DNA from: Heptranchias perlo
Lineage: Eukaryota
NCBI RefSeq assembly: GCF_035084215.1
Contig: NC_090342.1
Span: 20,956,001 to 21,020,000, forward strand
Direction: 5' to 3'
Length of the DNA stretch: 64,000 nt
In this document: piece by piece, positions 3,620 through 38,900 of the stretch
How positions within the stretch are numbered: position 1 is the stretch's first letter
Layout of the letters: each line of letters opens with the position of its first letter
Notes under the pieces: generated by a model
The model's database searches: none
What the model saw: only the letters and a program-made list of their open reading frames with translations
Told to the model about the DNA's origin: nothing
Program-made: the position numbers and the translations under genes

Positions 3620-4035
3620 AATTGTATTTATATTGCATCTTTTATGTCCAAAGTCTTGACAGCCAATTGATTATTTTGAAACGTAACCACTGTTAAATAG
3701 GCAAACGCAGCAGCCAATTTTGTACAGAGTAAGGTTCCATGAACAGCAATGAATAAATGACTAATTGATCTTTTTTGATGGTGTTGGTTGAAGGATAAAT
3801 GTTGGTGAAAACTCCCCTGTCCTTCAATTGTGCCATGAGATCTTCATGTCCACCTGAGCAGGCAGGTGGGACCTCAATTTTAACATCTCATCCAAACGAT
3901 GGTATGCCTTGGAATGCAGCACTCCCTCAGCATTATACTGAAGTGTCAGCCTTGATTATGTGATAAAGTCTCTCTATCAGGGCTTGAACCCACAACTTTC
4001 TGCCCCAGATGCAGGAGTGCTACCATTTGCCATAC
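3620..4035 (-). mobile_element. tRNA-derived DeuSINE (SacSINE1-like)
   Basis: Reverse strand reads Deu-domain-like gtgctgca...tttggatgagatgttaaa...caggtggacatgaagatctcatggcac, with a tRNA-like head (gtgggttcaagccc) and an L2-like tail. Confidence 0.75.
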
Positions 4036-5250: not shown

Positions 5251-5802
5251 ACTATATTAAAGCAAATAATCAATATGCATGCTTTTCAGTTATTCTTAGA
5301 TATTTCCGTGTTTAGCAATATTTATTGTACTGATAGCAAATATACCACGCCCACAGCTGTTCCTGCTACGCTAAATCAGCACTGAGCCGATTCAATTGCA
5401 AATTAATCCGAGTCGAAGCAGAGGAGATTCTTTTTGAAGATGTACTAAAATGCTTACAAATATTTTGAGAATTTTGACACTGTTTTAGGGTCACTTAGGG
5501 TCAAATAAAACTGTTGGACTACAACCTGGTGTTGTAAGATTCCTTACTTCTTTAGTTGGTTCATCATCAATATTCAAAAGAAAATAATCTTTTATATTTC
5601 AATTTATAATGCTCCTGCACGTTAACTAAAAGTTCAGAATTGTTTAACTTGGCATGGTAAAAAGTAAGAAGACATACCTTTTATTTGTTGATTGCAGGTG
5701 TTTGGATTGATTAAAGGGTGACTGTTAGTGGTAGGTGCTAAGTACAACAATGGTTAGAAGGGAAAGTTCTAATATGTTTACTCTATTGGAACCTGCCCTT
5801 AG

Positions 5803-16000: not shown

Positions 16001-19000
16001 AAATGGTCAAAGCATTAATATATAACTGTAACCCAATTAACGCACAAACACCTCTTAGTGTTCTATGCAGTAATTCCTACTATTACATCTTCAAATATGG
16101 ATAATTGCCAATTCTGACCTCAGGGGCTTTTGAGCATAAAAAGTACAGGGAATTTTCCCAGTTATCAGTTCTGGCAGTAGATAAGAGCTCCACAGCTGGA
16201 CTAGATCCAAACTCCGTGGCTGAAATGAGATTTTCATCAGCTACACACAACATCCCATTTGGAAGATCTACCAAGAGACAAATCTGACTATTTCATCTAA
16301 AGGTCCCATCACTCACCAGACCTTGTAAGAAATACATTATTAAAAATGACTATTTTAACTCTATAAGGATGGGTTCCAATGTTATTGTTTAAGTATTATG
16401 CTGATTCAGTATCTTGCTGTTCTATTTGGATGAGTATTAATTAACTTGTAAATACATCTGACTGTCACTTGTCACTCATATTACACTTTTTCAGAGAGAG
16501 AGAAGAATGTGGTGAGAATCCCTTGTGATCTTCAGTAAATAATATACTGCAATTAGGGGGTCAATTGCTAACCATACATGACACTTACAAGAATGTAGGT
16601 TTTAGTTCACAGGAGACTCAGTCTGCTTATAGAAACTGCTTTTAGCTCGGAAGGAAAGTGTTGGGGAAAAAGCCTGAACAATCAACTGTTGAAAAGATTT
16701 TAATAAAGTTTAAAATCATTACACAAATTCATAAACATTTGGAGTTTAGTATAATACAAACTTGAACATTGCCACAAACTTCTAAATTGAAAGTCAAATC
16801 TGTGAAACAATTAATCCTCAGCATAATTCTCTTTGTCCACTGATTTTATGAATAGAAACCAGGACTTGAACGTTCTCATTTGGCATTTCTTCTTTTTTGA
16901 GGCCTAATCTTATAAATATTAACAGCAAGTTCCCAGTTTTCTGTGGTATAGAATCATAGAAAGGTTACAGCACAAAGGAGGCCATTCGGCCCATTGAGTC
17001 TGCGCCGGCTCTATGCAAGAGCAATCCAGCTAGTCCCACTTCCCCGTCCTATCCCTGTAGCTCTGCAATTTTTTTCCTTTCAAGTACTTGTCCAGTTCCC
17101 TATTGAAGGCCATGATTGAATCTGCCTCCACCACCCACTCGGGCAATGCAGTCCAGATCCTAACCACTCTTTATGTAAAAAAGATTTTCCCCATGTCACC
17201 TTTGCTTCTTTTACCAATCACCTTAAATCTATGTCCTCTGGTTCTTGATCCTTCCACCAATGGGAACAGTTTCTCTCTATCTACTCTGTCTAGACCCTTC
17301 ATGACTTTGAATACCTCGACCAAATCTCCTCACAACTGTCTCTGTTCCAAGGAGAACAACCCCAGCTTCTCCAGTCTATCTACGTAACTAAAGCCCCTCA
17401 TCCCTGGAATCATTCTAGTAAATCTTTTCTGCACCCTCTCTAAGTCTTTCACATTTTTCCTAAAGTGCAGTGCCCAAAACTGGGCACAATACTCCAGTTG
17501 TGGCCGAATCAGTGTTTTATAAAGGTTCATGACTTCGATACTTTTGTACTCCAGGTCTCTATTTATAAAGCCCAGGATCCCGTATGCTTTCTCAACCTAT
17601 CCTGCCACCTTCAACGACTTGTGCACACATACCCCCAGATCGCTCTGTTCCTGTACCCCTTTTAGAGCTGTGTCCTCTAGTTTATATTGCCTCTCCTTGT
17701 TCTTCCTACTGAAACGTATCACTTCGCATTTTTTCTGCGTTAAATTTCATCTGCCACTTGTCCGCCCATGCCACCAGCCTATCTCTATCCTCTTGAAGTC
17801 TATCTCTATCCTCCTCACTGTTCCAAGTTTTGTGTCATCTGCAAATTTTGAAGTTGTCCCCTGTACACCCAAGTCCAAGTCATTAATATATATCAAGAAA
17901 AGCAGTGGTCCCAGCACCGACCCATGGGGAACACCACTGTACACCTCCCTCCAGTCCGAAAAAAAACGTTCACCACTACTCTGTTTCCTACACATAGCTA
18001 ATTCTGTATCGATGTTGCAACTGTCCCCTTTATTCCACAGGCCGCAATCTTGATGATAAGCCTACCATGCAGCACTTTATCAAACGCCTGGTAGTACTGA
18101 AAATATTTACAGAAGTGGAACAAAAAGCAGCTGCTTATTCAATGACTCTATAGGAACACGTTTTGCTAGTGTTTGGCCAGACTTCTAGATCAAACATTGC
18201 ACAAAGGACTCTCACAATAAGATACATTGGCTAGACAAACTTCAGTTTTGTATGGGACCATGCAATCCTTAACAAGAGCTTAACTAAATGACATGAAATC
18301 ATAAAGTCTTTTATATAACCTCAATCCAATGCATTTGTTGAGTACTTACAAAAAAAAACAGGAGATACAGATTAACAGGATGCTGATGTCTGTAGATTGC
18401 CAGAGCAATTATGAGACCCAGAGATCCTAAACCAGCTACCAACACCAATGCAGGGCTAGAATAGGAACAAGGCAATAAATTAGAAGCACATATGTATAAT
18501 AGAAAAAGTGTATGCATTTTTATTAAATTTAAAATGAGTTTATTACATAGTAGCAGCCTACAACAGAAGAACTTCTGAACTCTATTTCTGACAATATTAG
18601 AGCTGAAATGGAATAGACAGCTTATGCCACAGTTTTACTGTAGCATAAATGGTCACAACCACCTCAAATTGGTCACAATAAAACAAAAGTATGGACATAT
18701 GTGATCTAAAACAAACAGAACTAATCCATCAGTATGTAACTTGTGTTATATAATTAATGGTATAGTTACCTTGCATGAACAAAATCCTTGATTGTATCAC
18801 TATACATGAAAACAGCAGACATCACAGTGGTCAGAATAATCTGGACTGACAAGATGCTATACACCTTCCGCAGAAATCCTATCACAAGAAAAGAACTTAT
18901 AAAGAACAATAGAAATCCTATCACAAGAAAAGAAATTGTTTACAATTGTCAACCCCAGTCCATCACCGGCATCTCCACATCAAGAAAAGAACTGACATTA

Positions 19001-20208: not shown

Positions 20209-21422
20209 ATCAAAAGCAAAATATTGCAGATGCTGGAAATGTGAAATGAAAACAGAAAATGCTGGAAATGCTCAGCAAGTCAGGCAGCATCTGTGGTGAA
20301 AGAAAGAGTTAAAGTTTCAGGTCGATGACCCTTTGTCAGAACTGGAAGAAGTTGAAGGTTAAACGGTTTTTAAGCAAGTACAGAGCCAGAGGGAGGGGGA
20401 GAGGAATGAACAAAAGGGAAGGTCTCTGATAAGGTGGAGGGCAGGAGTGGTTAAATGATAAAAGAGATGATGGTGCAAGGTAAGGAGGGTGGTAATGGGA
20501 CAGGTAAAGAAACAACATTTCCTGTGCCATTTCCACCACCTCCAGCGCGATGTCACCATCAAACACATCTTCCCTTCCCCTCCCCTCCCCTTTCAGCATT
20601 CCGAAGGGACCTCTCCCTCCGCGACACCCTGGTCCACTTTTCCATCATCCCCAACACCCACTCTCCTCTCCACGGCACCTTCCTGTGCAAGCGCAGGAGA
20701 TGCAATACCTGCCCTTTCACCTCCTCACTTCCCACCATCCAGGGCCCCAAACACTCCTTCCAGGTGAAACAGTGGTTTACTTGTACTTCTTTCAATTTAG
20801 TATACTGTATTCACTGCTCACAATGCAGTCTCCTCTACATTGGGGAGACCAAACAAAGATTCGGTGAATGCTTTGCTCAACACCTCTGCTCAGTCCACAA
20901 GCGTGACCATGACCTGCCATTTTAATTCCCCATTCCACTCTGATCTCTCTGCCCTCGGCCTCTTACACTGTTCCAATGAAGCTCGAGGAACAGCACCTCA
21001 TTTTTCAATTAGGCACTTTACAACCTTCTGGACTCAACATTGATTTCAATAACTTCAGATCATAACCACTGCTCCCATTTTATCGGACAGCAGGTGGTGG
21101 TAATGGTTCTGATGTTGCCATTTACAGCTCCTCTAGACCCATCTTTTGTTTCTTTACTTGTCCCATTACCACCTTTCTTGCCTTGCACCATCATCCCTTT
21201 TATCATTTAATCACTCCTGCCCTCCACTCTATCACAGACCTTCCCTTTTGTTCTTTCCTCCCCTCACCCCTTTTTCCTGGCTCTGTACTTGCTTAAAAAC
21301 TGTTTAATCTTCAACTTCTTCCAGTTCTGAAGAACGGTCATCGACCTGAAACGTTAACTCTGTTTCTTTCTCCACCGATGCTGCCCGAGTTGTTGAGTAT
21401 TTCCAGGAATATCTGTTTTTAT
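20209..21422 (+). mobile_element. Penelope-like element with GIY-YIG endonuclease remnant and inverted terminal repeats
   Basis: CKRRRCNTC...[29 protein letters not shown]; ~20240-20515 is the inverted copy of ~21146-21422; 14-bp TSD taaggagatattag. Confidence 0.88.
21323..21359 (+). ncRNA. Minimal type-I hammerhead ribozyme motif (Penelope terminal repeat)
   Basis: AGTT-CTGAAGA-AC-GGTC atc GACC-T-GAAA-CG-TT-AACT. Confidence 0.6.
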
Positions 21423-23689
21423 TAAGGAGATATTAGGAAAGATGGCCTAAAGCTTGGTCAAAGAGGTAGGTTTTAAGGATGGTCTTAAAGGAGAGAGGTA
21501 GCAAGGCAGAGAGGTTTAGGGAGGGAATTTCAGAGCTTAGGGCCTTGACAGCTGAAGGCACGGCCGCCAATGGTGGAGTGATTAAAATCGGGGATGCACA
21601 AGAGGCAAGAATTGGAGGAGCGTGGAGATCACAGGAGGGCTGGAGGAGGTTACAGAGATGGGGGGGGGAAACAAGGCCATGGAAGGATTTGAAAACAAGG
21701 ATGAGAATTTTAAAATCGAAGCGTTGCCGGACTGGGAGCCAATGTAGGTCAGCGATCTCAGGGGTGATGGGTGAACGGGACTTGGCGTTACAGTTGGCAG
21801 AATTTTGAATGAGTTGAAGCTTAAAGAGTGTAGAATTTTACCCACTTTGTAGGATTTCATTCTAATGTCTATAAATTTTAGGTTCAAACCCAGAGGGAAG
21901 ATCAGTTACAGAGATAAGTCAACGTAGTGGTCAAATCAATGCTGGAAGTGAGGATGGTGGAAAAAGGGGAATGGCTTGATTTTATGTTTGGAGTCTTGGG
22001 ATTTTTGTGTCCGGGGAGTCTGGCTTTTTGCGTGTATTGTCACTTTTTGGTGCATGAGGTCTCGCATTCTTTGTGCACGGAGGTTTGATGTTTTGTGTAT
22101 GGAGGTGTTTGAATTTTCTGTGTATCAGAGCTCCCATTTCTGCAAAATCATGCAGCTTACTGGCTTACACAAATGCGTGTACGCTAATCACACTGATATG
22201 AGCCCATTGTGCCTGTCTTGTGCTCTTACCTTACCTAGTGCTCCTGGCTGGCTTTCTGACACCAAGATGGGCATTGGTTGAGGGGTTAGGATTTGGGTGC
22301 AGATGTGCAGTCATCCTGAGAGAGGGCAACATGTTCCATTCTCATTGCATGACTCCCCCTGCTATGGGGCTGTGGCTCAGCATTCCCATTGATCTGCAGG
22401 GGAGCAAATTATTGGGCAAATTGTGATCCAGTTGAAGCCCCCTTCCATTCGGTCTACCAACCTATCCAAGACAGAAGAGGTAATGCAGCACTGAGCCTAC
22501 ATGGCCCCAGTACGAGCATACCTGAGAGATGCTACTATTGATGCCAGAGTCCTGCAGCCCAGCTGCAGCGTCCATTGAGATGACTTCACGCTCCATGGTT
22601 GACTGCAGAGCATCGATACCATGCGCCAGAACCCCACACAAGTTGGTAATGGATTCCTTTACACTCTCTGGCATGTTTCAGAAGCTCCCTAGCAGGCAGT
22701 CCAATGCATTCAGCAATTGCTGATGCATGGAAAGTATTTTTCTTTTAAGGTCTATATCTCTGTCCTCTTTAACAGAGCTAGAATGTGGACAATCTTGGAT
22801 GTGGGCAGATGAGGAACACGGGGACAGAGATTGAGGATTCTCACTGGAAGAACCTTGGGGAAGGGAAAAGGAAAATTCTTGAACCAAGGGTTATTTGACT
22901 GCTGGATGCTTCACAAGTAGCTATTGAGGTAGCAACTAGAACATCATTTAAAAGGGAGTGGCATAAATATCTGAAAAGGAACAATATAAAAGGTTCGGGG
23001 GAAGGGTAAGGGGGGGTCACAGGAAAGAGTGCAAGTGACTGGGGAACCTGACCGCACCTTGTGCATTGCAGGGGGTTTCTGGGATAGTTTCAGGGTGAAT
23101 ATCAGTGGGTTATAGGATTACTACTATTGTATGACTGCTGGTTACGAGGGAAATCTGAGTGTTACCAGTATCACTATTAATTATCGGTGCAATTTCAGTG
23201 AGTTACTATTAGCTCCTGGTGGAATCAAAGTTCCTCCCACCTCTGGTTTCCCCTCTCTGAATTGCTCCCCCACCTTTGTTTTCCGCTCTTCCCTGCCCTT
23301 GGTTTCCCTTCTTCGCTTGCTCACGGGTGGCCTCCTGGTTCTAGGAACTTCTCACAAATGCTGGAGCAAAACCCCCTGAGCAAAGATACTCAACTACAGA
23401 GGGGAGGGGGGGGGGGGCAACGTTTAGAAGGTAAATGCAATAACATTTGCAGACCTCATGTGCTTAGATTATCACAAGGTGAAAACTCCACCTCCAGGAA
23501 TGCCTCCAACCAGAATTGGCAACCCTATCTTTACATATAATGATGCTTAAAATGTTTGCACCATTCGGGGTATGGTTGATTAGAGAAAAAGAGTATTTCA
23601 TAGATCTACGAGTGTTAGGTAAAACAGCAAATCTAACAGCATTATTGAATATTAGAGCATAATAACAGGAAGTTGAGAGTTGCTAAAGA

Positions 23690-23995: not shown

Positions 23996-26900
23996 GTAAA
24001 AGAAAATTAATTTCAGTTAGAATACGTTCAGTGCCGAGGCGTTAGTCAATGGTGCAATCCAGTTCAACGTTACTGCTGGTTTGAGCATTTAAAAAAAAAA
24101 CCTTTTCAAACTTCCCCGCCGGGTGAAAGGGCTCCGTCACTGTTCTGGATGAGGCAGGTCTGTCATGTGCTCTTTTGCTTTAAGTGCATATTTTACAGGA
24201 CTAACTACTTCAAGGCATAGTTACACCACCATCCGCAGCAAAAGTGCCAATAAAGCTCTTAAATTACTGATCAAGATCACAAGCTAAATACAGTTCAGGT
24301 GGTAGACATCAGGAACAATTGGAGCAGACGTGTAATGAAAACATAAAGCAAGCATTAAAAACTTGACAAAAGGGATACATCCCACTCATTTCACCATAGT
24401 GATTGTGCCTATGGTCTGTTGGCCTCCCTTGGTTCATCCGACCAGAATAAAATACAATTTTATTCACAACAGCAATATTTAAAACACTTTGATACTTAGG
24501 TTTGGGAGAGGTACCTCAGGCATGGCTTTAAGTTTGTGATTTTGGACATTGGATGATGACCAGGGTAGATGGCCTTCATGTTAAAATAGCCCGCTGATTC
24601 TTCTAGGGTGGCACATGAAGAATGGCCACTTTGGAAAGATGTGGGATGACTGCCCGTACCCTTAGAACCATACCTTGGCATGAGTCAACAAACTGGAATT
24701 TCCTTCGTGGATGCAACCTGGAAGTTAAACCCAAAAATGCACTAATTCCTGTGGCCATTTTGCTTATGGCAACATATGCTCAAATTTCTTGTGAATCTCA
24801 TTAGAACACGCCCGAATGTATAATGGGCAGAAATCAGCATAAACAGTCAGGGCCCAAGGAAAGCACTGAACTCGCACCGTATCTTTAAGTATAAAAATTA
24901 AAGTTTCAAATCATTTAACCATCATTCATGCACATTAGGCACAGCATGTTTAGGAACCTGCAAATGGGGAAGCTTTTTAATTTTTAATGTGACAGTGCCG
25001 GTCTCTGAGGGCCCATTTTAAAAAAAAATTCAAAAACTTTCAATAAAACACCAGAACTTTGATTCCTGCGGCACCTCAAAATCTGGTTGTAATTTGAAGA
25101 GAGCCTCTGAGCAAGTGCAATTGCAGGAAACCCGCCTGTAAGGCTCTGCTTGGAGATAGGGCTGTTATGGGTGGAGAGATCGAAAAACGATCATAAAAGA
25201 TTGAGGACTTGGGTGTACAGGGCACAATTTCAAAATTTGCAGATGACATAAAACTTGTGAGTGTAGTAAACAGTGAGGAGGATAGTAATAGACCACAGGT
25301 TGGTGGAAGGGGCAAACGCATGGCAGATGAAATTTAATGCAGAGAAGTGTGAAGTGATACATTTTGGCAGAAAGAACAAGGCAAGGCAATACAAACTAAA
25401 TGGTACAATTCTAAAGGGGGTGCAGGAACAGAGATTTCTGGGGGTATATGTGCACAAATATTTGAAGGTAGCAGGACAGGTTGAGAAAGCGGTTAAAAAA
25501 GCATATGGGATCCTGGGCTTTATAAATGGAGGTATAGAGTATGAAAGCAAGGAAATTATGTTGAACCTTTATAAAACACTGGTTCAGCCACAGCTGGAGT
25601 ATTGTGTCCAATTCTGGGCACCGCACTTTAGGAAGGATGTGAAGGCCTTAGGGAGGATGCAGAAAAGATTTACTAGAATGGTTCCAGGGATGAGGGACTA
25701 AAGTTACATGAATAGACTGGAGAAGCTGGGGTTGCTTTCCTTTAGAGCAGAGAAGATTGAGAGGAAATTTGATAGAAGTGTTCAAAATCATGAAGGGTTT
25801 AGATAAATTAAATAAAGATAAACATTGGTGGAAGGGTCGACAACTGGAGGACACAGATTTAAGGTGATTGGCAAAAGAACCAAAGGCGACGTGAGGTAAA
25901 ACATCTTTACGCAGCGAGTAGTTATGATCTGGAATGCATTGCCTGAAAGTGTAATGGATGCAGATTCAATCGTGGCTTCCAAAAAGGAATTGGATAAATA
26001 TTTGAAGGGAAAAAATTTGCAGGGCTACAGGGAAAGAGCAGGGGAATGGGACTAACTGGACTCTTACAATGAGCCAGCACAAGCTCGATGGGCTGAATGG
26101 CCTCCTTCTGTGCTGTAACAATTCTATGATTCTATAATTCTATGAGAGGGTTGTCCTATGAGGGGAGATTGAGCAGAATGGGCCTATATTCTCTGGAGTT
26201 TAGAAGAATGAGAGGTGATCTCATTGAAACATATAAAATTCTTAGAGGGCTTGATAGGGTAGATGCTGAGAGGCTGTTTCCCCTAGCTGGAGAGTCTAGA
26301 ACTAGGGGTCATAGTCTCAAGATAAGGGGTTGGCCATTTCGGACCGAGATGAGGAAAAATTTCTTCACTCAGGGTTGTGAATTTTTGGAATACTCTACCA
26401 TAGAGGACTGTGAATGCTCAGTCATTGTGTATATTCAAGACTGAGATTGGTAGATTTTTGGACACTAAGAGAATCAAGGGATATGGGGATAGGGTGGGAA
26501 AGTGAAGTCGAGGTAGAAGATCAGCCATGATCTTATTGAATGGAGGAGCAGGCTCGAGGGGCCTTATGGCCTACTCCTGCTACTATTTCTTATGTTCTTA
26601 TTCCGTCTTTTCAGTGTAAAACCCTAGCAAGTTATTGTTAGAGACTATTCGTGTAACTGTAATTATCTATCTTTCTCTAGTTACAATCAAAGACCTTGCC
26701 TCTGATGTAATTTACAAGGTGTTTGGACGGTTTCATTTTACTGCTCCTTGGTGGAAAGTGACTGCAAAGATCTTCTGTCACCAGAAAAAATGGTATTTAC
26801 AGTCGTATCCATCTTACTCTCTCAGGAGACACCTGGGCCATCAAAGAATGGAAATTTTCAGCCTGTTCCTAACAGCATGTCACGTCCATGAACAACACAT

Positions 26901-32900: not shown

Positions 32901-35900
32901 GTCAGTAATAGCAGCTTGGTAGAGTGGGAGACCAGCAGGAGAGTAGGCATGGGCAAGGGGCAGGTAAATGTACGTGAATGGAGTCACAAAATTAGTTCTA
33001 TCATAGTACAATTCAATACAATGTTTTGCAAGGGGCTGGGACCAAGCTAAAATTTTGATTATATTGAGACATTTGATCCATTGAAGTTAAATATATCTAG
33101 TCTCCAGTGCAGAAATAAATGAGATGATATTGTATTTAAACTACTTTTGGATCTGACTACACATAATGTACATTGGACTTCATTGCTCATGCGATACGCA
33201 TTCAGGTCCACTTGGGTGATATCACACCAGGTCCCATATGGGGTAGTCCATAAGTATAGACAGCTTTCATTATTTTAGGATTAGGTTTAATGAAAATGAG
33301 GACATTGGCATTTTGTAGGCATATTTTATTATTTTAGGGGATTTAAGCAGCAGGCACCAACACCTTGGGAAACTCCCAGATATGCTGCGTCGTGCTGTGG
33401 TCTGACTGGGAGATTGTAGTAGTTCCCCTGTAAAGATATGGGGACCTGTAAAGATTTGGGGGAGTAGCGTGGCAGTCAACTTTTAAGATATGTAACAGAC
33501 ACTAAGAGCTACAGAACTTTCAGGGCCTGTTTACTTCAGGCATCTTTTATGAAACATAATGCATTTTCTCACTTGAAACAAGTTGATGGGCTGGCAATCT
33601 GTTTTCATGTTTCTGTTAATGCTGTTCTGAAACTTGCAACTAGGGGTCATGGGAGAATGTGCCAGCTTCATTCATCTTCAGCTTTCAATCTGGTGTACCA
33701 TTGTGGCACACTACGATGGGGCAGGACATCCCAGGACACTTTCTATATTTTAATTCTGTTCTGAAAAGAAGAGCACGGTTATGGAGTAGAGTCTCAGGAT
33801 AAAAGAAAGACAAATTTGAATTATTCAACACGAAGAGAACCACATGCAGTTTAAAATAAAAATTAAAAACATTGTAAGCAAAGGGAGCAATTCTTTGGCT
33901 GTTGATTCCATTTGAGAGTTAGGCAGGTATCTCAATATTGATGTAATAACTTGAAACCATGTGATATCGCTAAATATTTGAAAATGGGACTTGCAGAAAG
34001 TAAATAGTGACAACAGTAGTCAGACAGCAACAAAAATATCGACCATACAATGAGAAAAATCTATGACAGCCATACTGGGGAGAGGAAAAACTGTGACAGA
34101 GAGAAATACAGCAAGAATTAGAGATTGGCAAAAAAAAGAAACAATTAAAGGGAACAATGCCATGGGAGATCAACCAGTATTAGTAAATATTGAAGAATGA
34201 TATACCTTAGTCTTTTCTACAAGACTAACATGGTTATTACAGATATGATTAAAGACTCTCTTAAGATGCAGTTGTTATGTCATATTAAATGCTTAGTTTA
34301 AGATTGATTTCTGAAAGACATTTCTCTCCTTATGATAGATTCTCTTAAAGGAGCTTCAACTTATTGGTTGTGAGGCATCCTTGTTGGCCTTTGAGGAAGC
34401 TGATCTACTGAGGACAATTCCAGAGTTACAACAACATGCTTTGGTGATTTATGATACACTCAAACAAACTTGCTGGAGTAAAGGACATACCTATGTTCAA
34501 GTTGATGAGCTGACTGGATTACGTACATCCAAGTTCAGTGTTGAAAGCGCATGGGAATCACTAAAATTTTTAAAGGATTACAAGATTATCGTAATAGAAA
34601 AAAAGCGCGTGTTTCTCACGCGTTTTTACAACTATGAGAAAGAAATTGCTAATTGTATAGAGGAACTTGTGGAGAGACCTCCATGGCGCATTTCTGTGAT
34701 TGTGGAGGAAGTTCTGAGAAAAGCTTTCACTCCAATCCAGAAGGAAAGATTACCTGAGGATACAGAGGCTGGTGAAACAGAGTACAGTGAAGATGTTGAT
34801 TTGGACCCAGATCAGGTGAAAGCTGCTGCCATGATGTGTGAAAATCCTGTTACGATCATTAGTGGTAAAGGCGGCTGTGGAAAGACTACACTTGTTAGCC
34901 TCATCTTCAAGGCAGCAGTTGAAAATATGGAGAGTGCGGATAATGAGGAACTTTTGCAAGCATGTCGAGATCTTGAGCGGGATCAATGCGCTCCTGAAAG
35001 TTGGGATATTCCATCAAGTAAAACTCCAGATGTCGCCTGTGTTGAAAAGGATGGAGTCAAAAAAGAATCTGTGCTGTTCACTGCACCGACTGGAAAGGCA
35101 GCATCTCTTTTAAAGAAAAAAACTGGGTTTGGTGCTTATACTTTACATCAGGTAACTGCCATCTAAGGATACTGTTGCAGATAGTTTAAACCTTTTGATT
35201 GCATATAGCATGAAGTAAACACTTGACCTTTAAGAGGACTCCTAAAGCACACACTACTACCGCGTTGGAGGTTAAAATGAGGGCGTATGTTTTTAAGGAA
35301 TACGTTACTTCAGGCTACATGTAAAATGTTAATCTTGTTAATGACTTGTTAATCAGTAATAACTAATTTGAGTTATATTAATAATGTAGATTTTCAGATT
35401 GGGCAAGACATTATTAAGATCAACCAATTTTGGTTGCTCGGCCTCATTTTATAGGATCAACTTAATTAATGTCATGTGGGAGCTCCTGAAAGGGTCAGGA
35501 AATTGTGTGTAAGTAACATTTACAGGTTGCTAAAAAGGGGTGATGAATCAATGTTAAGGAATCTATCTGCATATGGGGATAAAAATCTTGGTAGCAGTTA
35601 CAAGGCTGCTAACGTATACTTCAGCTTTTGCAAAAGTGGTTTGGGTAACAAAAATGGCTGACAAAACTCAGTGACTGACAAGAAATGGAGTCTATGGCCA
35701 AGTGATGGAATGAGGCAATACTCCAACCCCTGTTTGATGGCTGGAAAAATGGAAATGGTGAAGAATAAGGTGATAGCAAGGATGGTGGTCCTGCTTGCTG
35801 CTCTAAGAAACCCTTCCCATAAGACTGTAATGCAGCATGCCTGGAAGGAGGCAGAGGACTTGAGGGCACAGTTGACTATTACTGCCAGTGCCACCTCAAT

Positions 35901-38900
35901 GGTGCAAGTTAGGTGTATGTGTCTTTGCAGCAGATGGTGCAGCTCACCTGGCCGATTGCCAGTTCTACATAGCCATAAAGGTGATAGGATACCAGGGTAT
36001 GGGTGCAGACAGCCCCACCTACCTGACACCCTTCTTCCTCCCCAAAACATAAGTAAATGAGAAGTTGCATTAGAAAACCTACTGTCCCAATATTGTGGAC
36101 ATAGCTAAAAAGCAGCAGTGCTTGAACCCTTGGCTCAAAACCACCTGAACAACTTAGTGGAAAGAAAGAAACAAACGAAAAAAGTGAGAAATGGTTTGTT
36201 AATAGTCTCAAAATGCTGCTAGAAATGTTACTATAGGACTCTTTTAAATTCACTCCTGTAGCCAGCACATGCAGCAGCCCTAGGCACTGATTTTATATGT
36301 GTAGTAGATGAATGAGTGCTGTACCAGCATAAATGGCAGGAGATTGGTTGAAAATGTAAATGATGCCTTCAAGCCTAATTTTAATATAATTAACTCAAAC
36401 TTCTGGCACCAGTACAAAATCTGACTGAAAAATTGGATGAGCTGCTACGTGGGTGGAAATATTGGTTATGGCCACTTTATGGCATAACTGTTTGCAAAAT
36501 CTGCTGTTGTTTGTATGTTTTCAGCATGACCATTTCACTGGCAATTTTAGCAATTCGAATTAAGGTTTGAACTGGCCCGTAGCCCCAACTGTAGTCCATT
36601 TTCATTTAGTGACATTTTTGGCCTCATTACCATTTCTGACCTCAGTGGTTCTCCCATATCACCTCCAATGATAAATCTGCCTCCAAAAAGCTTGGTTTTC
36701 TCTTAGAATCATGTTACAGCTACCTTTTCTACTCTTGCTTTCCCCCTCTCCCTGCCATATTAGTTTAATCCACTCACTCTTACAGCTCTAGTAACCTCCC
36801 CATCAGAATATTGGTCCCAGTATTTCTACACTTTCCTAGCCAATTACTTACCTCCTTAATCTGGCTGTTCTTGTACTGACTAGCATTCAACACTGGTCCT
36901 ACTTCTTAATCTACCTCTCTGCTCCTGAACTCTTGTGAAGTTTTGTGTCAGACACTTATTTCAACTTCTCAATGATCTTTGTACAGCTCAATTCCATCAA
37001 TACCTGATATTTGGTTTGGGCACTTCCAACATTTCTCTTGCACTTCTGAACAGGATACAAGAAAGAGCTTATTACCCAATATGTCATTTTTTCACATCGT
37101 TCACCTGACGAAGGAGGAAGCCTCCGAAAGCTTGTGAATTTAAAATAAAATTGCTGGACTATAACTTGGTGTTGTAAAATTGTTTACAATTATTACCCAA
37201 TAGACAGTCCTTCACTAATCTGTCTCCATTGTAACCTTTCTTGTCTTTGTCTATTTTATTGATATTACTATGGTCAGTACTCTTCTGAACATATAGAATC
37301 TTTGATTTGGTGAAAGTGTGGCCAATATTTGATTTGCAATACAAGTTAACTGTAAAACAAAGCGATCAGTGGGAATCTGACAAATATGAAGTACTTATGC
37401 CTACTTTTGGTTTGATGGCTCTTTAAATACATAAGGAGAGTTTAACAGCCAGCTAAGCCTGATTCCTGTCGCAAGACTATTCTACTACACTGTTGATAGT
37501 TTGGTTGAATATAGGCTGGAGAGGAATAATCCAAACTCAAACAATGTTGTGTGGTTGGTTCAGTTTTGTACATGACTGGTAATTCCTTTTTTAAGATTTG
37601 AATGGTCAGATATTCAAAATCTAAGAAGTCTCACTAACTTTTCTGAGATATAAAAAGAGCAGTTCTGGTCAAATAAAAGAGTTAATTTGAGAAAATCTCA
37701 GCAAAAGAACTGATCAGTTTGAAACTGTCAAGCAATCATTTAAATTTAGAACTGGCTCCTGTAGGAGTAAGAAATTTATAAAGAAAAGAAATGTGTAACA
37801 TAAAAGTTATTTACAAAGTGTTAGCTTAATGTTGCAATCCTTTGTATTTTTGTCCACTTAAAGAGTTGGATAATCTTGCTATTGTAAATATATGACTATT
37901 ATATGATTGTTGCTTATTTGGTTGTTTGTCTTTTGTTAAATAAATTTGCTTAATGGTTTTAAACATAAAACATGGTTTGAAACTCTGATGCTTATCAAAG
38001 ATGAGAGGATAACAGAGGGGGCTTTCTGTTTCATTATTCCTGGCTTGTTACAGAAAGCTTACCGAGATCTCAAGACTGAACAGACACTCTTGAAGGTGTA
38101 GGGGGTTCAGACTTGCTCATGGGAGTGATGCAAGATATAAGAGTTAATATGAATAAGAGGGGTAGAAAAGACCCCAAAACACAACAGGGTGCTTCAGCGT
38201 AGACTGTGCTTTTCACTCTTCCCTCTTCTCCAAATTTAAAGTCTTATATGGATTTAAGTCCTATTAAGGATTAAAAATGAACATGTAGAATTGCAATAAA
38301 ATTAACATGAGAAAAGAATAATCAACAAAATGTTGGTGCAGACTGGTGAGTTTTTCTTCATTTGGGTTTGATTAGTAAAAATTGCTTCGAACTTTTTGGA
38401 GGTATTTGACATTGATTAGGGAGAAAAATGTAGATTTACACTTTGAATCCTCTCCAGATAAAGAACATTTTAATTAATATGTGTTTTTTTTTAACAGGTG
38501 ACATGGAGTTTCTGGTCTAGCGAGAAAGCTCGCAAGGCAGGAGCACCCCTTGATTGGATGTTTTCTGAAGTCCAGGTTCTGATTGTTGATGAGGGGAGTT
38601 TGGTCTCTGTACAGATCCTAAGTACAGTTTTAAAGTTGCTTATGAGACATGCCAATCTTAAAAAGCTTATAATCCTTGGTAAGTGTCTGCTGATAGGAAA
38701 TTTGCTTGTCTTTGGAATGCGTTACTATCATTAACATGTGATGCAAAATACCATTTTTGTTAGTTTTCTCTTTGCCCAGAGAGAGACAGACAGACAAACA
38801 GATCATGGAGTAGCTAATGGTGTCAAGTAAACTTAAAATTTATATGGTTCCAAATTTAATGCTAAATAACTATCAGTAATTTGGTGAATGTGAATTGACA

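Follow-up and report, generated by a model that had tools for sequence, protein, structure and literature searches.

A hammerhead-bearing insert in a shark HELB intron, probably a promoter-less pseudo-LTR stub of a Penelope-like retrotransposon

The pseudo-LTRs of Penelope contain a promoter (PMC2377424, PMC3846280), and a TATA box together with an initiator-like element has been reported in a Penelope pseudo-LTR (PMC3846280). Within the Penelope-like elements, a CX2-5CxxC linker between the reverse transcriptase (RT) and the endonuclease defines Neptune and Nematis (PMC8557442). The integration reaction has been described for PAc, Poseidon of Anolis carolinensis, in which a nick made by the GIY-YIG endonuclease in AT-rich DNA primes reverse transcription, which begins at two internal RNA sites bounding the tail. 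The PAc template requires the first 172 nt of the ORF, ribozyme cleavage is dispensable, and the PAc ribozyme cut only with its protein present (PMC11167929). The minimal hammerhead alone gave no cleavage in vitro, and its dimers showed low activity only (PMC4209133).

We analysed a short insert with such a hammerhead in intron 4 of HELB, located in a 64,000-nt stretch of DNA from Heptranchias perlo (hereafter the window). That the insert is a stub of a Penelope element is highly probable. The whole account, to which we give a probability of about 0.85, is that of a promoter-less pseudo-LTR stub made by run-off copying, whose ribozyme, within the HELB intron, probably has no activity.

The insert and its hammerhead motif

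The host gene was assigned through exon 4, the translation of which is 100% identical to a shark protein named DNA helicase B. This protein (P0001) maps as 13 exons on the + strand and places the insert in the sense orientation in coding intron 4 (35152-38497), in agreement with the first-pass annotation, made from the sequence alone, while a PDB sequence search using exon 4 gave no match. The features of the locus are as follows.

34339-35151 (start approximate), + strand: HELB coding exon 4, upstream of the host intron (protein match)
37069-37081, + strand: left target-site duplication (sequence; family duplications of 8-15 nt in 21/31 scored solo copies)
37082-37088, + strand: 5' junction, 7 nt beyond the ungapped match (sequence)
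37089-37191, + strand: exact Penelope-like pseudo-LTR segment, tail-less form (identical to L096:4019-4121)
37100-37138, + strand: minimal type I hammerhead motif (sequence; pairing probabilities; compensatory variants among subfamilies)
37144-37149, + strand: AATAAA carried by the element (sequence; three further AATAAA in the same intron)
37190-37202, + strand: right target-site duplication, its first 2 nt common to the element's 3' end (sequence)
38498-38678, + strand: HELB coding exon 5, downstream of the host intron (P0001 exon match)

The repeat TTATTACCCAATA stands at 37069-37081 and again at 37190-37202, with 108 nt in between, and the composition-based chance of such a 13-mer repeat within 50 positions is ~3e-6. 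The 108-bp insertion with a perfect 13-bp target-site duplication (TSD), as it had first been read, was thereby confirmed at 37069-37202; since the initial TT of the right-hand repeat matches the element too, we refined the length of the duplication to 11-13 bp. This duplication is supported indirectly, by the statistics of the family, in which flanking repeats of 8-15 nt were found in 21 of the 31 scored solo copies, versus 0.5% of 200 shuffled pairings. In two DNA runs, possibly from the source sample, both flanks enter the insert at flank depth and no insert-skipping joint was found, in contigs that drop rare variants and include no other individual. The seven bases at 37082-37088 read as two extra bases followed by the element's TCA with a T-run two longer, or as untemplated bases.

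In the hammerhead motif, stem I is formed by 37100-37104 with 37134-37138 and stem II by 37113-37117 with 37121-37125, each of 5 bp. The core consists of CTGACGA with one extra A and an intact GAAA box, while the palindrome AAGCTT at 37128-37133 replaces a closed helix III, and the cut is predicted after 37133. The sequence features of a minimal type I hammerhead are present, namely the core boxes, helices I and II, the extra base after position 9 and the palindromic helix III; the layout, including the AATAAA, is as the first-pass annotation had described it. The insert is not largely ribozyme, as had been stated, since the motif takes up 39 of the 108 nt. In contexts of 260-500 nt, the predicted pairing probability was 0.95-1.0 for stem II and ~0.5 for stem I. 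A comparison of the subfamilies revealed a stem II variant, GGAGA/TCTCC, and stem I variants that still pair, and these both-sided changes in stem II with kept pairing in stem I point, at the level of sequence, to selection in the autonomous element and not at the HELB locus. Rfam gave no hammerhead at the gathering score across the window, nor at E<=10 in 36900-37400; we did not weigh this against the motif, because the motif is without a helix III as a monomer. By analogy with the described systems, the minimal hammerhead is probably idle within the HELB intron.

Two relatives of the insert lie elsewhere in the window.

5503-5547, + strand: fragment of a related pseudo-LTR subfamily, no ribozyme (84% over 45 nt)
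18933-18982, + strand: second, shorter tail-bearing copy of the insert's family, no ribozyme (100% over 50 nt)

A tail-like relative at ~5500-5548 had been recognized earlier and the fragment is indeed there, but the closer copy at 18933-18982, which is flanked by an ~11-bp repeat (18924-18934 and 18981-18991), had been overlooked. The 5503-5547 fragment starts near its AATAAA and resembles, by eye, the 3' parts of copies L085 and L111. A second minimal hammerhead, of a different family, occurs at 21322-21360 (+ strand), within ~21290-21425 upstream of the HELB start codon; its palindrome is AACGTT, its stem II begins with a mismatch at the base, and it probably represents an older Penelope end. 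Upstream of HELB and in its introns there are also several LINE-like fragments with RT-like reading frames, for example at 16953-18089, 25205-26130, 40510-41143 and 43958-46342.

The Penelope-like parent family

The segment L096:4019-4121, to which 37089-37191 is identical, is the end of a ~2.6-kb copy in which an RT reading frame of 732 aa lies upstream. This exact match to the pseudo-LTR of L096 bears out the earlier suggestion of a truncated Penelope terminal repeat. L096 itself is 5'-truncated and its ORF end is altered; in a sister subfamily, L165 consists of head-to-tail 3,081-bp units with an intact 902-aa ORF, the ATG of which begins at the tail end. The tandem unit length is 3,082 bp in L163 and 3,086 bp in L152. 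These three tandems (L165, L163 and L152; contig C1, 3.12-4.47 Mb), with open ORFs of ~900 aa, are candidate source elements. Among the sampled loci, no full-length intact copy of subfamily A, to which the window copy belongs, was found. A 3.3-kb spacing at L068 was considered as a full unit and rejected, since unrelated DNA separates independent stubs there.

The Pfam domain RVT_1 matched the ORFs of both L096 (E 2.4e-10) and L165 (E 3.1e-10), and the L165 ORF carries a C-X4-C-X2-C linker. In these two ORFs, Pfam detected the RT only, with no match to the GIY-YIG domain; the translations have a C-terminal VVY...YIG motif, which may mark a GIY-YIG endonuclease. By the tested features, the element belongs to the endonuclease-bearing Penelope-like elements and it works as they do; judging from its sequence it is probably a Neptune.

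The genome-wide count that the first-pass annotation had proposed as a check yielded, in the 3.25-Gb genome, 8,213 exact copies of the 35-nt ribozyme core and 43,901 exact copies of a 36-nt anchor from the 3' part of the insert, with none for the reversed control in either case, and the copies vary in length. The ends were analysed in the first 100 core and the first 100 anchor matches listed on contig C1, plus one extra anchor match inside (101), which span the first 36 Mb and the first 5.75 Mb of this one contig. Merging gave 186 copies, of which 12 were local duplicates, leaving 174 that hold the ribozyme 3' arm; 11 shorter copies are outside the 174, and 30 query-biased loci from the initial search were excluded from the end counts.

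The 3' ends of the 174 non-redundant copies are bimodal, with 76 tail-less copies ending 0-6 nt past the anchor and 79 tailed copies ending at 34-39 nt; 5 are intermediate and 14 were unscored. The insert is a solo copy of the tail-less form. Head-to-head pairs combine one tailed and one tail-less arm in 26 of 31 cases, although the arms of an inverted pair are not independent of each other. Same-strand neighbours within 600 bp were seen only 3 times, and no array of at least three short units was found among the 174 copies. In 120 copies the 5' end lies downstream of a TATA-like box, while 54 extend past the box; every subfamily contains both kinds, short and long, which share the subfamily sequence. 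The insert had been called young, and its 103-nt match to other copies at 100% identity supports, as sequence evidence, a relatively young age.

At least five pseudo-LTR variants (copies L031-L188) diverge in the stretch from the TATA box to the ribozyme; the 3' part is common to them, and so, in nearly identical form, is the ORF end wherever long copies were seen. This sequence pattern suggests promoter swapping among the pseudo-LTR subfamilies. In L163 and L067, the 3' end of the element is directly followed by long arrays of short tandem repeats, perhaps produced by repeated copying at the insertion site.

5' ends and their possible origin in run-off copying

The 5' ends pile up behind the TATA-like box. 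Counted from the first T of the box, 30 of the 174 copies end at TATA+29/30, and the window copy ends at TATA+30. The stop rate per nucleotide at risk reaches 14.6% at +29/30, as against 1.6% between the TATA box and +27 (27 copies), and a broad shoulder of 37 copies lies at +34 to +42 (2.8%/nt). Farther than 160 nt upstream of the box the rate drops to 0.04%, a value from the anchor sample, in which 10 events were counted over 23,541 nt. In subfamily A the peak lies 48-49 nt from the ribozyme core end (20/83 short copies) and in subfamily B 41-42 nt from it (6/15 short copies), in both at TATA+29 to +31; the position in subfamily B had been set as a test ahead of its result. When only solo copies were counted, 15 of 34 ended at +29 to +31. 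Peaks off +29/30 were observed in subfamilies C (+32/33, n=7) and B2 (+23/24, n=6), and some assignments to subfamily D are doubtful. A binomial test of the peak (p 4e-11) is not relied on, as the arms are paired and the test window was chosen after subfamily A had been seen.

Of 101 copies, 1 ended within 2 nt of the predicted cleavage site, and 8 at or 3' of the ribozyme 3' arm. T-runs of 5-6, where the element has four, were confined to copies ending at the junction (5/28 versus 0/30), as expected for a polymerase at the end of its template. In subfamily A the ends peak on the A of TCATTTT, a base that fits the initiator consensus. Contig depth on L096:3580-4179 rises near 4020 in one DNA set and three presumed-RNA sets; we do not use this rise as evidence, since contig depth cannot reveal starts or levels and the upstream part is subfamily-specific. 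A-rich loose ends at L096 3771 were rejected as a poly(A) site, since they are present in DNA too.

On balance, the pile-up of 5' ends in these genomic copies would mark the transcription start of the element, a reading that we favour with some reserve. Transcription may thus start ~30 nt behind the TATA-like box in the pseudo-LTR, so that 37089-37191 is likely the 5' UTR of the element's mRNA. The RT start sites would lie ~105 and ~140 nt downstream of the transcript start, just ahead of the ATG. Running off the 5' end of the RNA, the RT would leave a promoter-less stub of ~105 nt without the tail or ~140 nt with it. Since the RT would begin within the RNA, shortly ahead of the ORF, an ordinary transcript would be copied into 105-140 bp of DNA representing its own 5' UTR. 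We hold this run-off step to be somewhat probable. Long copies bearing the ORF would require a read-through RNA spanning the ORF and the next pseudo-LTR, and the AATAAA of the element may be its own poly(A) signal, acting in the downstream pseudo-LTR. With a similar modest preference, we read most insertions of the family as built-in by-products, not failed full-length copies, the 5' ends of the stubs recording the start site.

If this is true, each active element scatters SINE-like hammerhead stubs, devoid of a promoter, by the tens of thousands, and run-off would account for the many minimal hammerheads dispersed through animal genomes. If the peak is the transcription start, it ties internal initiation in vitro to the mostly tiny copies of Penelope, promoters can be mapped with nothing but the genome sequence, and a hammerhead monomer dispersed near pseudo-LTRs is not necessarily a retrozyme. 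The single insertion is ordinary, one of thousands of stubs from a known class of retrotransposon, and the pattern at the family level matters more. A statement that short Penelope copies end at the transcription start was absent from the literature searched, including the text of the PAc supplement; subscription papers or the figures of that supplement may hold it.

The short copies could instead come from ordinary 5' truncation, in which copying of a long RNA aborts early and either A/T microhomology joining or structure near the ribozyme makes an apparent peak. Such truncation is the standard description of Penelope-like elements (PMC8557442), some long copies do stop in a T-tract of the 3' UTR, 172-187 nt upstream, both peaks are on A/T-rich bases, and an alternative stem pairs ~37091-37096 with the 3' arm of stem I. 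Against this, the stop rate drops ~300-fold from the peak to far upstream, the peaks of subfamilies A and B keep their distance to the TATA box and not to the ribozyme, and only the 8 of 101 ends mentioned above fall at or 3' of the ribozyme 3' arm, where the polymerase meets the structure first. We therefore regard ordinary truncation as the less likely origin, though one to be taken seriously. The first-pass annotation had set random 5' truncation of an autonomous Penelope against its own proposal of a separate, retrozyme-like mini-element; the copies are truncated Penelope copies, but the truncation is strongly non-random. That proposal, a non-autonomous ribozyme retroelement (a non-LTR retrozyme, or SINE-like) with its own short or circular RNA that borrows Penelope enzymes, would suit the predominance of short copies (120/174) and the suggested derivation of animal retrozymes from pseudo-LTRs (bioRxiv 10.64898/2026.07.22.740005). 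It is nevertheless highly improbable: the insert is an exact piece of an autonomous element's pseudo-LTR, each subfamily has both short and long copies with common subfamily sequence, and the short ones are without the TATA box and variable at the 5' end. Moreover, same-strand neighbours are confined to the three noted among the 174 copies, with no short array, just one end in 101 is at the cleavage site, and the stubs do not contain the first 172 nt of the ORF that the PAc template needs (PMC11167929).

Whatever its origin, the insert might affect HELB through cleavage or premature polyadenylation of its pre-mRNA in intron 4, as had been envisaged in the first-pass annotation. It lies in sense, its core boxes are intact and a GU-rich stretch comes after its AATAAA; folding in context predicts stem II, and many RNAs of the family could in principle pair with the palindromic helix III (-4.3 kcal/mol). 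However, the monomer has no helix III, single minimal hammerheads showed no cleavage and such motifs are inactive alone (PMC4209133), and cutting by the PAc ribozyme required its protein (PMC11167929). The sole other motif found by the descriptor in the window (21322) has a different palindrome, intron 4 holds the three other AATAAA, and the annotated HELB is full-length (1,103 aa). Cleavage or polyadenylation of HELB RNA by the insert is thus unsupported, and we consider an effect on HELB very unlikely. We retain the run-off stub, with a probably idle ribozyme, as the preferred account of the insert.

Comparison with known systems

Animal non-LTR retrozymes (PMC7229834; bioRxiv 10.64898/2026.07.22.740005) are, like the insert, short and non-coding, with a type I hammerhead and a relation to pseudo-LTRs. 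They are described in these sources as tandem repeats of 150-450 bp expressed as circles, whereas the shark insert is a dispersed monomer; its family is arranged in head-to-head pairs, with ends that fall on Penelope start sites and not where the ribozyme would cut. Of the retrozyme features, short-unit tandem repeats were absent from the 174 copies of the one contig, and ends set by cleavage amounted to 1/101.

The motif resembles the minimal hammerheads of metazoan Penelope-like elements (PMC4209133), which are likewise of type I, with a short helix I, a palindromic helix III, an extra base between positions 9 and 10.1, a G10.1-C11.1 pair and mostly dispersed single copies. Helix II is of 5 bp in the shark versus 7-8 bp in Schistosoma, and the shark copies are highly uniform, like those of D. 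virilis (PMC4209133).

With regard to the Neptune/Nematis-type elements (PMC8557442), the shark element has the same single ORF, with an RT, a presumed C-terminal endonuclease-like region and a CX2-5CxxC linker, and shares the tandem pseudo-LTRs, the inverted 5'-truncated arm, the hammerhead in the pseudo-LTR and a 30-40-bp tail on one side. The sharp peak of 5' ends at TATA+29/30 is not stated in the text of that paper used here.

PAc belongs to the Penelope/Poseidon clade, and its ORF starts within the ribozyme, with the start sites of reverse transcription 111-118 nt inside the ORF (PMC11167929), unlike the shark element, in which the ATG of the ORF begins at the tail end. In both, two neighbouring 3' ends delimit the tail, the targets are AT-rich, there are signs that extension proceeds from both strands, and the ribozyme is located upstream of the start sites (PMC11167929).
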